Shown here piece after piece: positions 7,016-14,074 of a stretch of DNA of 47,876 bases. How positions within the stretch are numbered: position 1 is the first letter of the stretch; each line of letters starts with the position of its first letter. Source of the DNA: an uncultured Verrucomicrobiota bacterium (GTDB lineage Bacteria > Verrucomicrobiota > Kiritimatiellia > RFP12 > UBA1067). The stretch lies in the NCBI GenBank assembly GCA_946544115.1, contig CAMNLW010000003.1, positions 1 through 47,876 of the forward strand. Reading direction: 5' to 3'. The notes beneath the pieces are model-generated. The model searched no databases and was not told the origin of the DNA. It saw nothing but the letters and a program-made list of their open reading frames with translations. Both the position numbers and the translations under genes were made by a program.

Positions 7016-7513
7016 ATGAAAACACTGGCACAAAAGGCTATGATTGTTCTGGCTCTTGCTTTGGCGGCGAATGTCGCTTCTGCTGCGGCCGACAGCTACC
7101 TCTACTGGATGCTTGGCGACAACATCAAGAACAACCTCGGAGGTGATTCCGTTACATACAATTACGCAACGGTCAAGCTTGATGGTACTTACTTGAACCT
7201 GTATGATGGGGCTACACCCATGGGGACGGAGGTAGACTCCTCTTTGGCGGATACCGCCGGCTATTGGGGCAAGTTCGATGCAAGCGAGTCCCATTCCACG
7301 TTCCTGTTTGAACTGTGGAACGATGGAGCGACCGATCCTGTCGGCTGGCTCACGATGAAATATTCCGACATGCAGAACTTCATCTCGAACGGCACGACTC
7401 CGCACGGCACCTTCAACGTCGCTTCCTACGGCGTCGTTCCCGAGCCGACGAGCGGGCTGCTGTCGCTCTTCGGCCTCGCGGCCCTCGCCCTCCGCAGGAG
7501 GAAAAGGGTGTAA
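7016..7513 (+). CDS. PEP-CTERM sorting-domain protein
   Basis: N-terminal signal peptide; C-terminus VPEPTSGLLSLFGLAALALRRRKRV (PEP motif, TM helix, basic tail); AAGGA RBS. Confidence 0.95.
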   Translation: MKTLAQKAMIVLALALAANVASAAADSYLYWMLGDNIKNNLGGDSVTYNYATVKLDGTYLNLYDGATPMGTEVDSSLADTAGYWGKFDASESHSTFLFELWNDGATDPVGWLTMKYSDMQNFISNGTTPHGTFNVASYGVVPEPTSGLLSLFGLAALALRRRKRV

Positions 7514-7541
7514 TCGTGTCTGGTCAACTTAGAAAGGAATC

Positions 7542-8264
7542 ATGACAATGAAGAAGACAATGCTTTCGATGTTCGCGGCCATGGCTGCGACTGCCGCGTT
7601 CGCCGCCGCGAACGATGTGCTGATTACGTTCTCCACCCCAGGCCCAGACAAGTATGCCGACGGCACTACGGTTCTGGACGGCGAGCGCTATGCGCTCTGC
7701 TGGTCGAAGGATTTTAGCCAGTTCAAGATCAACCCCGACGGCTCCGCCGAGGGCGGCGCGATCGTGATCTCCGTCCCCGTCGCGAAGAACGGGTGCTGCC
7801 CGACGATGATGTTCGAGGTTGACGCCGATCTTGTCGCCAAGAAGTACACCGGCGGCGAATGGGCCGTCTACATGCTCGACACCCGCAAGTTCGGCGCGAC
7901 GGGCGCCGTCGCTTCGGTCGGCTCGATGGACGCCGTCAACACCTTCGGCGCCGTCGGCAACTCGGTCGCCGTCGCCACTGGTTCCGCCGGCGGACTCCTC
8001 GCGGGCGTCTCCGGCGCGGCCAAGACCGCCACCGGCGATGTCGCCGCGCCGCAGATCACCGGCATCCGCGTCTTCGAGGGCAATGTTTACGTCACCGTGA
8101 AGGGTGCGCCCTATCTCGGCTACGGCCTCACCGCCGGCGACACCCCCGCCAAGGTCGATGCCGACGTCGCGAACGCCACCGCCGGCGCCACCGGCGCGGA
8201 CGAAGTGACGATCGTCACCCCCGTGAAGGACGGCGGACAGTTCTTCAAGGTCAACCGCAAGTAA
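7542..8264 (+). CDS. Secreted hypothetical protein
   Basis: GAAAGGA RBS; signal peptide (MKKTMLSMFAAMAATAAFA); coding-like codon usage; ends with a beta-strand motif GQFFKVNRK. Confidence 0.75.
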   Translation: MTMKKTMLSMFAAMAATAAFAAANDVLITFSTPGPDKYADGTTVLDGERYALCWSKDFSQFKINPDGSAEGGAIVISVPVAKNGCCPTMMFEVDADLVAKKYTGGEWAVYMLDTRKFGATGAVASVGSMDAVNTFGAVGNSVAVATGSAGGLLAGVSGAAKTATGDVAAPQITGIRVFEGNVYVTVKGAPYLGYGLTAGDTPAKVDADVANATAGATGADEVTIVTPVKDGGQFFKVNRK

Positions 8265-8273
8265 GGGAGGCCT

Positions 8274-10529
8274 TTGCGCGATACCGTAACAATACGGAGC
8301 AGGCTTGACGGACGGGACTGGCTTCTTGCGACAATCGCGGGGCTGGTCTCGTTCGCGGCGTTTTCATACTTCTCCGTCCCCGGCCTCGACCCGTCCCAGT
8401 GGGGCGAGGTCGCTGTGGCCGCGCGGCTGCGTCCGCCGCAGTATATCTTCCCGGGCCTCTGGCGCATTCTCGTCGCGGGGCTTTTTTCGGCTTTCGGCAT
8501 AGCGCGCTCGGTAGCCGCGCTTGCGTGGATGGGCGCGGCGCTCGGCGGCGTTGTCGTGGCGCTGAGCTATCTCGTCACGCGGCAGATTCTCGCGTTCCTC
8601 ACGCGCTTCGCCGACGAGCAGCCGGTGTGGACCCGGCTCATATGCCCGATGTTTGCGCTCTTCGCGGCGCTCTTTGTGGCGGTGGCGGACCCGGTCTGGC
8701 GCGTCGTGCAGACCTTTTCGCCCGAGGAGCTTCGCCTCCTGTTGCTCCTCGCGGCGGTTTACCTCTACCTTCGCTGGCTCACGCTCGGCGGCGACTGGCG
8801 GCTCTATCCGCTGGTCGCGCTGATAGGCGTGATGGCTGCCGAGACGCCCTTAGGCTTTCTTCTGCCGCCCCTTTTCGTGATGGGGTATTTCCGCCTGTGG
8901 CGTCACGTTATGGACGGCAGCTTTTACGCGCCCGACGCCCTGCCCGACCCCGACCGTCTGCCGCGCTGGCGCATGTTCTTCCTCTTCCTCGGCGCGCTGG
9001 GCGCGGCCGTGTGGCTGAACTCCTGGTTCTTCACCGCCCTCGGCGGACTAGAAGCCAACGGGTGGCGTTCGAGCGACATATACTTCCGCTACGGCGCGGG
9101 CTACTGGCACACCCTCGCCGACGCCTCCACCATGGCGGGCTGGGCGCTCGGCCTCGGTTTCGGGCTTTTCCCGCTCGTCGTCGCGCAGAGGCTCTTCCCC
9201 TCGGCGATCCATGAAGACCGGCCAATGCGCTTCCAGCGCGGCGTGATTCTCGTCTTCGTCTGTGCGCTCGCGGCCATGCAGACGGGCGCTTTCCCGGCGG
9301 CGCGGTTCTGGGTTTTCATGAAGGATTCCGTCGCGGTGTCGAGCGGCTTCCTCCTTTCTTTCTATGTAATGTGCTCGGCTCTCACCGTGGCGCTTGTCGG
9401 CGCGGCGTTCGCGTTCGAGTGCCGCCGCGTGTATCTGCCCGACGGCGCGAAGACGCCCGGCCCGCTTCTGCGCCATCTGGTGCCGGCGATCGCGCTAGGG
9501 GTTCTGGCTCTGGCGGCGGTCAACGTCCCGCGCGGGGCGACGTGCGAGATGAAGCGCATCGTCCGCGACGCGCTTGAAGAGACGGTGAGAGAGTGCGGCG
9601 GGGCGAAGTGGATCTTTACCGACGGACGTCTCGACGACGGGCTTGAACTCGTCGCGGCGTCGATGGGGTCGCCGCTCAGGGCGCTGAACATGATGGGCGG
9701 CCCGAGCCGCTGGGCCGAGTCGGTCCGCACGAGGGGCTTCGAGAAGGGGTCCGCCGATTACGACAACGCCTCGATCGGCGTGCCTATGCTTTTGAGGGTG
9801 TGGGCCGGCGAAAAGCCGGGCGGTATGGACGAGGCCGCGATACAGCTGGGCTTCGAATTCTGGAAGCGCGAGGGGAAGCCTCTGCCGACGGCGTCGGGCC
9901 TTGTCGCCCGCACGACCGGGCTTGACGAGGCCGGGGCGGCGCGCGGCGTCGAGGCGGCGAACGCCCTCGCCGGGCGGATCATCGCGCTTGACGGCTCGGC
10001 GTTCGTGAACGCCTCGCCCTCGCTCGTGGAGGCGCTTTCGTCCGTATCGTGGCGGATTTCGCGCTTCGCGCGCCTGCGGAACGATGAAAAGCTCGCCGAC
10101 ACGCTCGACCGCAGCAACACGGCCCTGCGGCGCATGCTTTCCATAGTGGAGTACGAGCGCCAGCGCACGTTCATGCAGATGACTCCGCGCGAGGGTCTGC
10201 AGCTCGCCTTGAGGCGGGCCGACTTCGTGGAGGCGCGCCACTACGCGGCGGCGGTCCTCAGGAGCGACGAGGACGACCCCGAGGCCAATTTCGGAATGGG
10301 GATGAGCTATTTGAGGGAAGGGCGGATGGATGACGCCGAGTTCTATCTGAGGCGCTGCCTCAAGCGCCGCCCCGACGAACCGGCGGTGTTGAACAATCTT
10401 TCGATAATCTGCCGCAAGGCGCGGCGGTACGACGAGGCGCTGGAGTTCGCGCAGCACGCGATAAAGATGCTCCCGGATTCGCCCGAGGTTCGGCAGACTC
10501 TCAAGGACGCGCAGGAAAGAAAGCAGTAG
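8274..10529 (+). CDS. Polytopic membrane protein, DUF2723/TMEM260-like N-terminal region plus C-terminal TPR
   Basis: GGAGG RBS and TTG start. About 11 hydrophobic segments; PGLDPSQWGEVAVAARLRPPQYIFPGLWRIL resembles the DUF2723 DSGE...HPPGYPL region. C-terminal TPRs (DPEANFGMG, EPAVLNNL, PDSPEV). Confidence 0.6.
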   Translation: MRDTVTIRSRLDGRDWLLATIAGLVSFAAFSYFSVPGLDPSQWGEVAVAARLRPPQYIFPGLWRILVAGLFSAFGIARSVAALAWMGAALGGVVVALSYLVTRQILAFLTRFADEQPVWTRLICPMFALFAALFVAVADPVWRVVQTFSPEELRLLLLLAAVYLYLRWLTLGGDWRLYPLVALIGVMAAETPLGFLLPPLFVMGYFRLWRHVMDGSFYAPDALPDPDRLPRWRMFFLFLGALGAAVWLNSWFFTALGGLEANGWRSSDIYFRYGAGYWHTLADASTMAGWALGLGFGLFPLVVAQRLFPSAIHEDRPMRFQRGVILVFVCALAAMQTGAFPAARFWVFMKDSVAVSSGFLLSFYVMCSALTVALVGAAFAFECRRVYLPDGAKTPGPLLRHLVPAIALGVLALAAVNVPRGATCEMKRIVRDALEETVRECGGAKWIFTDGRLDDGLELVAASMGSPLRALNMMGGPSRWAESVRTRGFEKGSADYDNASIGVPMLLRVWAGEKPGGMDEAAIQLGFEFWKREGKPLPTASGLVARTTGLDEAGAARGVEAANALAGRIIALDGSAFVNASPSLVEALSSVSWRISRFARLRNDEKLADTLDRSNTALRRMLSIVEYERQRTFMQMTPREGLQLALRRADFVEARHYAAAVLRSDEDDPEANFGMGMSYLREGRMDDAEFYLRRCLKRRPDEPAVLNNLSIICRKARRYDEALEFAQHAIKMLPDSPEVRQTLKDAQERKQ

Positions 10530-10538
10530 CGGGTCGGG

Positions 10539-11351
10539 ATGAGGGTCGAGGTCATATCACCGCACGGCTTCTGCGCGGGCGTGGAAAGTGCAGTCAAAAA
10601 GGCGCTGGCGCTCGGGAGCGGGGCTTTCTGCCTGCATGAGCCGGTGCACAACGATATGGTGACGGCGGCTCTGCGGCGCAGAGGCGCGGGCATTGCGGAC
10701 GACCCGGGGGAGGTTCCGCCGGGCGCGACGATGATCCTGCCGGCCCACGGCGTCGCGCCGCGCGTAAGGAGGGAGGCCGAGGCGCGGGGCGTGAAGATCG
10801 TCGATGCGACGTGTCCGTTTGTCGAGCGCGTCCATCGCGCGGCGCGCGCCTTCGCCGAAAAGGGGCTTCCCGTCGTCGTCATCGGCGACGCCGGTCATGA
10901 CGAAGTGGCGGGGATCGTCGGCGAGGTGGAAGACTGCGGGGGGCGTGCTTTCGTCTACCCCGATCTTCCCCCGTCCGGCGGCATAGGCGTGGTCTGCCAG
11001 ACCACCGCCGACGTCGACTGTGTCGCGCGGACGGTCAGCGAGCTTCGCGGGAGATACGCGGTCGAGGTGATGGCCGAAGTGTGCGGCGTGACGCGCGAGC
11101 GCCAGCGGGCGGTCAAGGAGTTCAAAGGCGACGCGCTTCTTGTTCTCGGGAGCGCGAGGTCGGCGAATTCGCGGCGGCTCTGCGAAATCGCGCCGTGCAG
11201 GGCGTTCATGGCGTCGGACATGGCAGAGGTGAGGCGGCTCGACCTCTCGGGGGTTGAGACCCTGGGCGTGACGAGCGGGGCGTCCACGCCCGAGGACTTC
11301 TTCAACGAGGCCGTGGAATTTCTTAAAGAAGGATGTAAAGAGGAGAGATAG
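10539..11351 (+). CDS. ispH: 4-hydroxy-3-methylbut-2-enyl diphosphate reductase
   Basis: GFCAGV, VHN, AHG, DATCPFV, H-D-E-V, QTT, C..T.ERQ, SANS and GVTSGASTPE motifs. Confidence 0.93.
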   Translation: MRVEVISPHGFCAGVESAVKKALALGSGAFCLHEPVHNDMVTAALRRRGAGIADDPGEVPPGATMILPAHGVAPRVRREAEARGVKIVDATCPFVERVHRAARAFAEKGLPVVVIGDAGHDEVAGIVGEVEDCGGRAFVYPDLPPSGGIGVVCQTTADVDCVARTVSELRGRYAVEVMAEVCGVTRERQRAVKEFKGDALLVLGSARSANSRRLCEIAPCRAFMASDMAEVRRLDLSGVETLGVTSGASTPEDFFNEAVEFLKEGCKEER

Positions 11352-11357
11352 AACAAC

Positions 11358-12560
11358 ATGAAAAAGATACTGGCGGTCATTGCGCTTGCGGCGGCGTTCG
11401 CGGCGAACGGCGACGAGATAAAGGTGATAGACGGGGTGAAGTACATCTGCACCGACGACGGCATGTGCATGCCGGTCGACGACGTGCAGGGGGAGACTGC
11501 GCCTGCGTGGGTGGACGGCGCGCGGCTTGCGCAGGGCTACATGGAGCCTGCCGAGCTGATATCGTTCATCAACGGCGAGGACGGCGGCGCCGGGGCGCTT
11601 GCAGGGAAGGGGATGTGGATCGTCCTTCTTATAGCGCTTCTCGGGGGGCTCGCGATGAACCTAACGCCGTGTGTTCTGCCTATGGTGCCGATAAACCTCA
11701 TGGTCATAGGCAAGTCGGCCGTGCGCGGAGTATGGTACGGCGCGGGGATAGCAGTCGCCTACGGCGTCATGGGCGTGATGGCGGCGGTCGGCGGGATGGC
11801 CTTCGGCGAGATACAGGGGAGCGCGTGGTTCAACGCGCTTGTGGCGGCGGTGTTCGTGGTGCTGGCGCTCGCGCTCTTCGACGTGTTCTTCATCGATCTG
11901 TCGAAGTTCCGCAAGGTTGACGGCGCGGCGGAGCGCCGGGCGAAGGCGCCGCTGTTCTTCGCGTTTTCAATGGGCGCGTTGAGCGCGGTTCTGGCGGGCG
12001 CGTGCGTCGCACCGATACTCATATCGGTTCTGCTCCTCACGGCCGACCTCTTCGCGAAGGGCAGCTGGGCGGCGCTGGCGCTTCCTTTCGTGCTGGGGCT
12101 GGGCATGGCGCTTCCCTGGCCGTTCGTCGGCGCGGGGATGCAGGTTCTCCCCAAACCCGGCGCATGGATGAAGAAGGTGAACCGCGTGTTCGGCGTGGTT
12201 GTGCTGTGCTTCGCGGCGTGGTACGCCCACCTCGCATACGTCGCGTTCAAGTCCGGCCGCGCGGTGCAGGGCGACGCCCCTGCGGAGAGCGCGCGGTCCG
12301 GCGGCGCGGTCGAGGCGACGCCCGCGACGTTCGCCGCGGCGCTTGAGGCGGCGCAGAGGCCGGTGTTCGTCGACTGCTGGGCGAGCTGGTGCAAGAACTG
12401 CGCGGCGATGGAGCGCGGCACTTTTCAGGATGAGCGCGTGAAGGAGGCGCTCAAGGGCTGGACGGTGATCCGCCTGCAGGCCGAGGACATTCGCGAGCTC
12501 AAGACTTTGAAGGGCTTCGAGGGGGTGATCGGCCTCCCGGCGTTCGTGATCTTCAAGTAG
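11358..12560 (+). CDS. dsbD: DsbD/CcdA-family thiol:disulfide interchange protein (TM domain plus thioredoxin)
   Basis: Signal peptide; TM domain with NLTPCVLPM and GACVAP; C-terminal thioredoxin WASWCKNC...GLP. Confidence 0.85.
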   Translation: MKKILAVIALAAAFAANGDEIKVIDGVKYICTDDGMCMPVDDVQGETAPAWVDGARLAQGYMEPAELISFINGEDGGAGALAGKGMWIVLLIALLGGLAMNLTPCVLPMVPINLMVIGKSAVRGVWYGAGIAVAYGVMGVMAAVGGMAFGEIQGSAWFNALVAAVFVVLALALFDVFFIDLSKFRKVDGAAERRAKAPLFFAFSMGALSAVLAGACVAPILISVLLLTADLFAKGSWAALALPFVLGLGMALPWPFVGAGMQVLPKPGAWMKKVNRVFGVVVLCFAAWYAHLAYVAFKSGRAVQGDAPAESARSGGAVEATPATFAAALEAAQRPVFVDCWASWCKNCAAMERGTFQDERVKEALKGWTVIRLQAEDIRELKTLKGFEGVIGLPAFVIFK

Positions 12561-12574
12561 GGGAGGGCGGCGCT

Positions 12575-14074
12575 TTGGGACGGTTTTTCCTTGCATTGCT
12601 TGCGGCGGCGGCCTGGGCGGAGGGTTCCGCCGGCGCGACTTTCACGCGTTCGCTGGAGCGCGTGACGACGATGGACCCCGCCATGAGCCAGTCCATATAC
12701 GACGCGCGCGCGACGATGCTCGTATATAAAAGCGTTCTCTCGATAGACTACGAGGCGCGGCCGTATGCGCTCGCGCCCGGGGCGTGCGAACTGCCGGAGG
12801 TGTCGGCGGACGGACTTCTTTACCGCTTCCGCGTGATAGACGCCGAGCTTACGGCGCATGATGTCGTGCGGTCGCTCTCGCGCCTCGCGTCCGCAGACCT
12901 CGTTTCGCCGAACGGCTGGATGATGAAGGGCGTCGAGTCGATGAAAGCCGTTGACGACAGGACGGTGGAGATTCGCCTTGAGGCGAGGCGCCACTACTTC
13001 CCGTGGCTTATGGCCATGCCCGGTGCCGCCGTGATGAAGCCGGACGGCGAGGGAACAGGCCCCTACCGGCTAGCGAAGTGGTGGAAGAACCACGAGATGA
13101 CGTTCGAGCGGCGCGTCCCCGCGCCGGGGATGTTCGATACTGTGAAATTCCTCGTCGTGGACGACGCTTCGACGCAGTGGCTCATGTTTCTCAAGGGGGA
13201 GATTGACTTCCTCGGCGAGATATCGCGCGACAACTGGGACGCCGTCGTCGGGCTGGACGGCCGCCTCGACAGGTCGCTTGTCGAGCAGGGGATAGTGATG
13301 CACTCCATTCCGACGATGGACACGATGTATATCGGCTTCAACATGAGGGACGCGGTGGTGGGCCGCAACAGGAAGCTGCGCCAGGCGCTCAACGCGGCTT
13401 TCGACTATCCTGCATGGGAGAAGTTCTACGCCGGGCGCATAACAGCGGCTGGAGGGCCGGTGCCGCCCGGGATCGACGGCTATCTGGAGACGCCATTCCA
13501 GTACGGGTTCGACCTTGAGAAGGCGCGGCGGCTCATCGCCGAGGCCGGCTACCCGGGGGGGATAGACCCCGCGACGGGCCGCCGGCTGGTCCTCACGCTT
13601 ACGATCGGGCGCGCCTCGCAGGACAGCCGTGAGTCGGGCGAGCTGGTGGCGGCGTTCTTCGAGCGCATAGGGGTGAAGCTTGAACTGGCGTTCCAGACGT
13701 GGGACGCGTTCTTGAAGTCCGTAAACGAGGGTCGCGTGCAGCTCTTCCGCATGGGGTGGGTGGGCGATTATCCCGACGCGCAGAACTTTCTGCAGCTGTT
13801 CCACTCCAGGAACAAGAGCCCCGGGCCGAACCATTCCGACTACGAAAGCGCTGCTTTCGACGAGGAATACGACCTCGCCCTCAAGGAGAGCACCGCCGAA
13901 GGGCGCAACGCGCGCTGGCGCAGGTGCCAGGAGATACTGCGCGAGGACTGTCCCTGGATATTCACCCATTTCAACAAGTCGAATTCGCTCGTCCGGCCGA
14001 CCGTCGGCAACTACCTGCCGAGCGTGTTCTCGTATGGAAACGAGCAGTTCTACAAGGCAAACGCAGTAAAATGA
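12575..14074 (+). CDS. ABC transporter substrate-binding protein, family 5 (peptide/nickel type)
   Basis: TMDPA, PGACELPEVSADGLLYRF, GTGPYRL, YIGFNM, RQALNAAFD, GWVGDYPDAQNFLQLF; signal peptide; TTG start uncertain. Confidence 0.9.
   Translation: MGRFFLALLAAAAWAEGSAGATFTRSLERVTTMDPAMSQSIYDARATMLVYKSVLSIDYEARPYALAPGACELPEVSADGLLYRFRVIDAELTAHDVVRSLSRLASADLVSPNGWMMKGVESMKAVDDRTVEIRLEARRHYFPWLMAMPGAAVMKPDGEGTGPYRLAKWWKNHEMTFERRVPAPGMFDTVKFLVVDDASTQWLMFLKGEIDFLGEISRDNWDAVVGLDGRLDRSLVEQGIVMHSIPTMDTMYIGFNMRDAVVGRNRKLRQALNAAFDYPAWEKFYAGRITAAGGPVPPGIDGYLETPFQYGFDLEKARRLIAEAGYPGGIDPATGRRLVLTLTIGRASQDSRESGELVAAFFERIGVKLELAFQTWDAFLKSVNEGRVQLFRMGWVGDYPDAQNFLQLFHSRNKSPGPNHSDYESAAFDEEYDLALKESTAEGRNARWRRCQEILREDCPWIFTHFNKSNSLVRPTVGNYLPSVFSYGNEQFYKANAVK

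Follow-up and report, generated by a model that had tools for sequence, protein, structure and literature searches.

In a 47,876-nucleotide stretch of DNA from an uncultured Verrucomicrobiota bacterium (GenBank assembly GCA_946544115.1, contig CAMNLW010000003.1; the whole stretch is called the window here), we analyzed a gene encoding a DsbD-family disulfide reductase with six transmembrane (TM) helices. An earlier reading of the same DNA, referred to below as the original prediction, had interpreted the segment in front of the membrane domain as a miniaturised version of the N-terminal alpha domain of DsbD. According to our analysis of this gut/rumen Kiritimatiellia genome, no second reductant exporter of the DsbD/CcdA type was found beside this gene, whose product probably has an alpha domain reduced to a relay hairpin together with a gamma domain split into two pieces. 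This reading builds on architecture, conservation, profile similarity and predicted secondary structure, from which we infer that the two parts of gamma dock, that the hairpin is redox-active and what its clients may be. In the proposed scheme, cytoplasmic thioredoxin would reduce the C105/C216 pair in the six-helix membrane core, and this pair would in turn reduce the WCKNC motif (C345/C348) of the periplasmic gamma domain. The gamma domain would then reduce the C31-C37 disulfide on a tethered β-hairpin of ~20 residues, which would hand the electrons to exported client proteins. The protein fails four classical features of DsbD (a DsbD_N domain, eight TM helices, a contiguous gamma domain and the curated model score) and yet most likely works like DsbD. 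A more far-reaching proposal, for which we see the balance as even, is that a thioredoxin fold is completed across the six-helix membrane domain, linking the redox domain to the transporter at either end, and that a peptide-sized, multipliable disulfide shuttle replaces the 120-residue adaptor, with exported thioredoxin-like modules as its clients instead of DsbC or the cytochrome c maturation pathway. The literature searched, an incomplete body, describes neither a hairpin-only alpha domain nor a gamma domain divided in two by the membrane core.

The overall architecture identifies the protein as a DsbD relative. Pfam detected DsbD_TM (PF02683) at residues 87-289 (E 7.9e-33) and Thioredoxin_7 at residues 327-399 (1e-8), and the sequence contains three cysteine pairs, C31/C37, C105/C216 and C345/C348. 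The Ig-type alpha family DsbD_N (PF11412) was not matched in the protein at E<=1, in N-terminal fragments at E<=10 or in the genome at E<=0.001; scanning the isolated N-terminal fragments at E<=10 returned no Pfam family at all. Against the NCBIfam DsbD model NF001419 the protein scored 144.1 bits, compared to a curated cut-off of 330, with the alignment starting at residue 31, which corresponds to profile position 122. To place the protein in its family, a homologue search covered 5.8 billion proteins, of which 8000 candidates were scored and 3726 proved to be relatives at E<=0.001. The best 120 of these 3726 are 54-99% identical, measure 383-465 residues where the N-terminus is not visibly truncated, and come from metagenome-assembled genomes (MAGs) of Kiritimatiellae, Lentisphaerae and 'Verrucomicrobia' from gut and rumen. 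In an alignment of 117 sequences, C37, C105, C216, C345 and C348 are invariant, such that every protein has the one cysteine in TM1 and one in TM4 that define the core of the DsbD superfamily. An AlphaFold2 (AF2) model of the full-length protein, calculated from a 117-sequence multiple sequence alignment (MSA), contains six TM helices and has a mean predicted local distance difference test (pLDDT) score of 81.7.

The hairpin is centered on the motif YICTDDGMCMP (C31-x5-C37-x-P39, 11448-11474), with codons at 11448-11450 for C31, 11466-11468 for C37 and 11472-11474 for P39. The pair was retained in 117 of 118 close homologues. Within the 117-sequence alignment, G26 of the hairpin is invariant like C37, with C31 and D34 conserved to at least 90%, whereas the linker following the hairpin drifts freely in length and sequence. 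Because the pair is conserved while the adjoining linker varies, we conclude that it is under selection. The number of hairpins per protein is itself variable: among the 118 homologues, 91 carry one copy, 25 carry two and one carries three, with a single protein having lost the first cysteine. AF2 predicted β-strands at residues 21-24, 27-31 and 37-39 in the full-length model, and the same hairpin was obtained from the N-terminal fragment with pLDDT values of 76-84. With regard to spacing, 133 of 144 hairpins have C-x4-C and 11 have C-x5-C, the latter representing the immediate clade of the window protein; a proline at position +2 after the second cysteine occurs in 62 of the 144.

These data bear on several statements of the original prediction. 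Its description of about 65 residues preceding the TM domain and containing YICTDDGMCMP agrees with the translated open reading frame (ORF), in which ~68 residues separate the signal peptide from TM1 (residue 87 is the first of the Pfam DsbD_TM match). Likewise, the cited C-x5-C-x-P motif of the E. coli alpha domain was confirmed in the K-12 dsbD gene, which reads ...TYQGCADAGFCYPPE, and BLASTP paired C31-TDDGM-C37-MP with C122-ADAGF-C128-YP of the E. coli precursor in an alignment that begins exactly at C31. The classification as a DsbD relative without an Ig-type DsbD_N holds, and so does the proposed conservation of the cysteine pair, on which the idea depended. The homologues that were to be sought, with a short N-terminus and a cysteine pair, exist in gut and rumen MAGs, and the suggested structure prediction of the N-terminal segment yielded a β-meander in both full-length protein and fragment. 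The importance given to the E. coli-like spacing has to be withdrawn, however: C-x4-C is the norm in the hairpin family as well as in an alpha-bearing sister clade, and the exact match to C-x5-C-x-P is a local accident.

Further observations concern variation in the module itself. Tandem hairpins occur in P0043-P0097 (two copies) and P0078 (three copies), separated by Pro/Ala/Glu-rich spacers of ~25-35 residues, and both cysteines are present in every copy. One subclade has a longer, four-strand module following the pattern DVYI[VI]xGxR[IV]EGEVHExxGxKT[IL]-C-TDxx-C-xxxPxDAVKVE (P0034-P0041, P0049, P0064, P0079, P0084, P0090, P0099, P0244; loci L014, L016 and L018), which might represent a halfway stage as alpha was reduced or, alternatively, an extended form of the hairpin. 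A metal-binding role, considered on account of the Cys/Met-rich DGMCM stretch, was rejected, as the methionine positions are not conserved (L, V, I, Y or R in homologues). Searching the ESM Atlas for look-alikes of residues 18-80 gave no usable match.

We traced the origin of the hairpin using more distant relatives. A HMMER search of 1.84 billion cluster representatives returned 407 proteins at E<=1e-30, of which the best 150 were examined. Most of these 150 measure 500-560 residues, show no alignment to the window protein before about residue 55, and end just after the cis-Pro strand. Relatives at 42-50% identity possess a full DsbD_N Ig domain of 100-150 residues at the same architectural place, and Pfam recognized DsbD_N in seven of eight alpha-type proteins scanned (E 1e-6 to 2e-19). 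Their alpha cysteines follow the pattern V-x-YQG-C-x4-C-[YF]-x-P, and the conserved segment found upstream of TM1 in the window protein comes next; the short family reads KYE-C-KDGM-C-MP. In a FastTree phylogeny of 184 cores rooted with E. coli-type DsbD, the hairpin clade (49 rows) was separated from its DsbD_N-bearing sister clade (130 rows, 99% local support). Since outgroup and sister clade both carry DsbD_N, the parsimonious explanation is that alpha was reduced once, at the origin of the hairpin clade, by which the hairpin form would derive from a full alpha-beta-gamma ancestor. The label 'intermediate between CcdA and full DsbD', used in the original prediction, is therefore misleading in an evolutionary sense. 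Within the sister clade, the alpha cysteines are spaced C-x10-C in P0266, P0269, P0282, P0288, P0298, P0300, P0303 and P0305 (e.g. CRATTPESSGIC) and C-x3-C in others; the loop between the catalytic cysteines is thus very plastic across six-TM DsbDs.

The second unusual feature is located at the C-terminus, where the gamma domain ends five residues past the cis-Pro strand (GLPAFVIFK*). The Pfam Thioredoxin match to gamma covers only positions 3-80 of 103, and the phmmer match to the DsbD gamma chain in the PDB stops at residue 99 of 137. Using VIA-align, residues 313-400 of the AF2 model superimposed on residues 427-517 of DsbD gamma (Z 9.2, 26-28% identity) and on residues 1-82 of the 108-residue E. 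coli thioredoxin, leaving the last strand and helix of the targets without counterpart; the DsbD gamma and thioredoxin chains matched by the model all carry these two elements. The VIA-align alignments of 313-400 were all sequential. The short C-terminal end is shared by the close homologues, nearly all of the 150 representatives and 79 genome loci, amounting to nearly all of ~350 sequences; a few of the representatives and loci have longer C-terminal tails or are fragments. A truncated gene, a frameshift or an assembly artefact was rejected as explanation, given that a separate ORF, headed by a signal peptide, begins 15 bp further on and that GLPAFVIF[EK]* terminates more than 100 independent homologues.

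The missing strand and helix appear to reside in front of TM1. The conserved segment at residues 52-76 is the best-conserved part of the N-terminus (family consensus R-L-A-Q-G-Y-M-x-A-D-E-F-x-A-F-L). None of the 268 family members or 79 genome loci inspected lacks it, and it extends to the DsbD_N-bearing clade and even to members having neither alpha nor hairpin. Its profile alone was aligned by hhalign to the C-terminal helix of E. coli DsbD gamma (P 2e-4), the motif common to both being G-[FY]-M-D-A-E-x-F-x-x-x-L. We then permuted the family alignment, placing residues 316-400 before residues 54-76, and aligned the re-joined profile to E. coli-type gamma. Re-joining lengthened the aligned region from 78 to 101 columns (gamma 26-135 of 136), with a score of 116.7 in place of 102.2 (+14.5). 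Profiles with shuffled segment columns reached 103.1 +/- 0.7 (60 shuffles, maximum 105.5) and the reversed segment 105.0, placing the real segment ~19 standard deviations above the shuffles.

Structure prediction pointed in the same direction. In the full-length AF2 model, residues 55-59 form a β-strand and residues 64-71 a helix (pLDDT 79-93), whereas a prediction of residues 18-86 by themselves (24-sequence MSA) retained the helix and the hairpin strands and had no strand 55-59. Because this strand vanishes from the isolated N-terminus while the hairpin stays, its partner should not be the hairpin; with the hairpin ruled out and the membrane domain all-helical, a strand of the thioredoxin sheet is left. 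In the predicted structure, strand 55-59 would most simply pair with the free edge strand 395-399 of gamma. Moreover, gap-free mean-field direct coupling analysis (DCA) yielded a coupling density between the segment and the thioredoxin domain equal to that within the thioredoxin domain and 2-4 times that between the segment and the TM domain, in the whole set and in both subclades. First DCA runs, whose top couplings were caused by gaps shared among fragmentary sequences, were discarded. The two gamma pieces can assemble because both ends of the protein are periplasmic, the signal peptide placing the N-terminus and the six TM helices the C-terminus outside.

Provided that the pieces dock as proposed, the split corresponds to a natural circular permutation of beta-gamma relative to E. 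coli DsbD, such as the classic duplication-and-truncation route would yield. The combination of G-[YF]-[ML]-x3-[EF]-F-x2-F-L before TM1 with a Thioredoxin_7 domain ending within 10-25 residues of the cis-Pro is present in the window protein; by far most of the 150 representatives share both features, as do the 79 genome loci. Judged from these sequences, the split gamma domain appears to be common to a six-TM DsbD clade across many phyla. For the original prediction, this means that the interval 11412-11600 is not one element but two, the hairpin (11415-11480) and the conserved segment (11511-11585), and that only ~22 residues (20-41) can represent a mini-alpha, the rest of the ~65 being linker and displaced gamma piece.

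Several points weigh against the relay hairpin and the split gamma domain, and they are considered here together with the alternatives. It is conceivable, though we find it doubtful, that the hairpin is not a redox relay: C31-C37 may be a structural disulfide, or the hairpin may act in docking or recognition or be vestigial, and clients may be reduced directly by the CxxC of gamma, as in CcdA plus ResA and in alpha-less DsbD. Six sister-clade rows without an N-terminal cysteine pair indeed keep the conserved segment, the TM domain and gamma. As such variants without alpha exist, in which gamma presumably serves clients directly, the hairpin need not be an obligatory relay. In addition, it has neither the Ig scaffold nor the cap loop by which the active site of E. 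coli alpha is shielded, homologue P0041 has lost the first cysteine, and the profile link to alpha is weak. Against this reading, the pair is kept in almost all homologues beside a drifting linker, and in every two- or three-copy duplication, and it agrees in position and in C-x4-C spacing with the catalytic pair of the sister-clade DsbD_N; with a dedicated reductase domain as neighbour, a purely structural disulfide would, furthermore, hardly stay oxidised.

Alternatively, the hairpin might be a functional mini-alpha of independent origin instead of a DsbD_N remnant, its aromatic-x-x-C-x4-C-hydrophobic likeness being convergent. We judge this unlikely and keep it as a minor rival because the direct profile evidence is weak: comparing the hairpin to the alpha cysteine hairpin, hhalign gave P values of 4e-3 (E. 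coli alpha) and 1e-3 (sister-clade alpha) with probabilities of only 8-22% over 10-12 columns, and the sister-clade test is partly circular, as both sets were anchored on their cysteine pairs. Pfam DsbD_N does not detect the hairpin, the module duplicates easily, like a simple repeat, and the root depends on a distant outgroup and the FastTree topology. Common descent is favoured, however, by the presence of alpha in both outgroup and sister clade of the rooted tree, by the matching position relative to the conserved segment, and by P0259 and P0314, two hairpin-clade proteins with N-terminal domains of ~100 residues that end in VTVRG-C-x5-C-WAP and look like a diverged alpha. The idea of a miniaturised alpha domain thus finds backing in the sister DsbD_N clade and the tree, and less so in the profile comparison.

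As for the split gamma domain, the DCA is noisy (Meff ~170, Y61 acting as a hub, p 0.02-0.3 for segment/thioredoxin versus segment/TM couplings), the 55-59/395-399 contact was deduced by elimination and not seen, and the two AF2 runs rest on MSAs of unequal depth (117 versus 24 sequences). That residues 52-76 are instead an interfacial amphipathic helix packing on or gating the membrane domain, with gamma a minimal, C-terminally shortened thioredoxin, is very unlikely: the segment directly precedes TM1, helix 64-72 is confidently predicted even in the isolated fragment, and several DCA pairs connect the segment with TM columns, but such a helix would not explain why the 23 columns gained upon re-joining fall exactly on the last strand and helix of gamma, a gain that none of the 60 shuffles reached, nor the motif shared with E. 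coli gamma, nor a strand predicted only when the thioredoxin domain is present, nor the absence from this C-terminal domain of the very elements that all matched chains carry.

The coordinates of the individual parts are compiled in Table 1. Following the signal peptide, with a putative cleavage site after residue 17, the sequence reads ANGDEIKVIDGVKYICTDDGMCMPVDD; homologues begin with comparable hydrophobic N-termini. Residues 42-51 probably serve as a flexible tether. An additional observation concerns C340 (12375-12377), an extra cysteine five residues before the CxxC (VD-C-WASWCKNC) that is invariant in the 117 aligned close homologues. The aligned residue is aromatic (Phe/Tyr) in the consensus of the alpha-bearing clade and in E. 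coli DsbD gamma, at a position which we take to be that of the core residue Phe27 of E. coli thioredoxin.

Table 1. Parts of the dsbD-like gene and its upstream neighbour, in window coordinates
Feature	Position	Strand	Description
Whole gene	11358..12560	+	400-residue six-TM DsbD-family disulfide reductase; stop codon 12558-12560; from ORF list and translation
Signal peptide	11358..11408	+	Residues 1-17, MKKILAVIALAAAFA, followed by ANG; Sec-like by sequence; AF2 helix 2-16
Cys-hairpin module (putative mini-alpha)	11415..11480	+	Residues 20-41; three-stranded β-meander, C31 and C37 flanking the last turn
Linker	11481..11510	+	Residues 42-51; acidic/Pro-Ala, variable; AF2 pLDDT <50 at 42-47
Conserved N-terminal segment	11511..11585	+	Residues 52-76 (ARLAQGYMEPAELISFINGE); putative displaced end (last β-strand and α-helix) of the thioredoxin fold in gamma
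Beta domain	11613..12266	+	Residues 86-303; six TM helices; from AF2 helices and Pfam DsbD_TM 87-289
Redox cysteine C105	11670-11672	+	TM1, LTPCVLP
Redox cysteine C216	12003-12005	+	TM4, GACVAP
Gamma domain	12303..12557	+	Residues 316-400; N-terminal four-fifths of the thioredoxin fold; cis-Pro G392-L-P394
Gamma active site	12390-12401	+	W-C345-K-N-C348
ispH (LytB)	10539..11351	+	Pfam LYTB 5.5e-62; 6 bp before the dsbD-like start

We next looked at the genomic setting for donors and clients. The MAG contains a single DsbD_TM gene and, on contig 67, a trxA gene whose product TrxA is the potential electron donor. In this MAG, which is 79% complete, DsbD_N, Redoxin (TlpA/ResA/CcmG type), AhpC-TSA, DSBA and Cytochrom_C_asm were without match; given the limited completeness, the absence of these partners is provisional, adding to the counter-arguments above. 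Cytochrom_C_asm was also found in none of 18 same-genus genomes, and a role in cytochrome c maturation was accordingly dropped. Exported Thioredoxin_7-like modules with a WCxWC motif, joined to diverse proteins, are common in the genus. They are the best candidates for the putative clients. One such module of the same genome lies outside the window, on contig 18 of G000 (7234-9513, minus strand; L006:1235-3514, minus strand). It is a 760-residue fusion comprising a signal peptide, a complete Thioredoxin_7/Thioredoxin_2 domain with WCYWC, and an NhaC-type Na+/H+ antiporter (Na_H_antiporter 2.5e-47). Just one further genome of the genus carries the full fusion, and its thioredoxin module is found, at 40-47% identity, on other exported proteins of 270-1000 residues.

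Within the window, no promoter-like site was detected between ispH and the dsbD-like start, and the two genes are probably co-transcribed. Their order is conserved elsewhere, as a public gene call (P0252, 659 residues) fuses LytB to a hairpin-type DsbD. The ORF on the downstream side (12575-14074) has a TTG start and encodes a solute-binding protein (SBP_bac_5, Pfam 4.5e-55).

DsbD is a textbook case of electron transfer via a cascade of three folded domains. A widespread lineage of gut and rumen bacteria seems to retain nothing of alpha but its cysteine hairpin, in some cases in two or three copies. If this hairpin proves active, neither the Ig scaffold nor the cap loop would be needed for the relay itself; both would serve partner selection or protection from oxidation. 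The proposed split gamma domain, seen in almost every inspected member of a six-TM clade with hundreds of species genomes from at least ten phyla, would account for the Pfam Thioredoxin_7 matches stopping at the cis-Pro strand in six-TM DsbDs and would shift the domain boundaries used for constructs and annotation. It also implies that gamma is anchored to both TM1 and TM6, limiting its swing between membrane cysteines and alpha, a mechanical question for DsbD.

Compared to E. coli DsbD (PDB 1vrs, 2fwe, 1jpe), the window protein has the three cysteine pairs in the same order along the chain and its TM core cysteines in TM1 (TPCVLP) and TM4. Its N-terminal pair aligns to C103/C109 of the mature E. 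coli protein (C122/C128 in the precursor), and E. coli gamma is the best match to its gamma domain in both structure (Z 9.2) and sequence. In contrast, E. coli DsbD has an Ig-fold alpha domain in place of a hairpin of ~20 residues, eight TM helices instead of six, with ~70 residues (TM7-8) between TM6 and gamma left unmatched in BLASTP, and a contiguous gamma, whereas the last strand and helix of the window gamma would lie before TM1. Another close system is the six-TM DsbD_N clade, 42-50% identical over the conserved segment, the six TM helices and the truncated Thioredoxin_7; it shares the segment motif GYMxxxEFxxFL and has C-x4-C as its commonest spacing, and it differs in carrying a DsbD_N Ig domain of 100-150 residues (Pfam E 1e-7 to 1e-19) where the window protein has only the hairpin. 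Its hosts include Hydrogenedentota, Acidobacteriota (Vicinamibacterales), Cloacimonadota, Victivallales, Pedosphaera, Phycisphaerales, Kiritimatiellales and others.

CcdA (PDB 5vkv) has a similar six-TM core with two membrane cysteines, matched by phmmer over residues 89-281, and lacks fused periplasmic redox domains, whereas the window protein is fused to a Cys hairpin and a gamma domain (Thioredoxin_7) that we read as split. The superfamily has been described as consisting of DsbD, CcdA and ScsB, with some members lacking alpha and with the Bacteroides and Leptospira DsbDs branching apart (Cho et al., 2012; PMC3322552); the six-TM DsbD_N clade may be this 'distinct branch'. ScsB was reported to have eight TM helices and a larger, unrelated alpha domain of two subdomains (PMC3322552), for which the N-terminus of the six-TM window protein is too short. 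What these systems have in common with the window protein is an evolutionarily labile alpha module, replaced in ScsB and absent in some DsbD and ScsB forms (PMC3322552). Whereas the alpha-less forms have no N-terminal cysteine pair, the window protein keeps the pair on a peptide-sized module.

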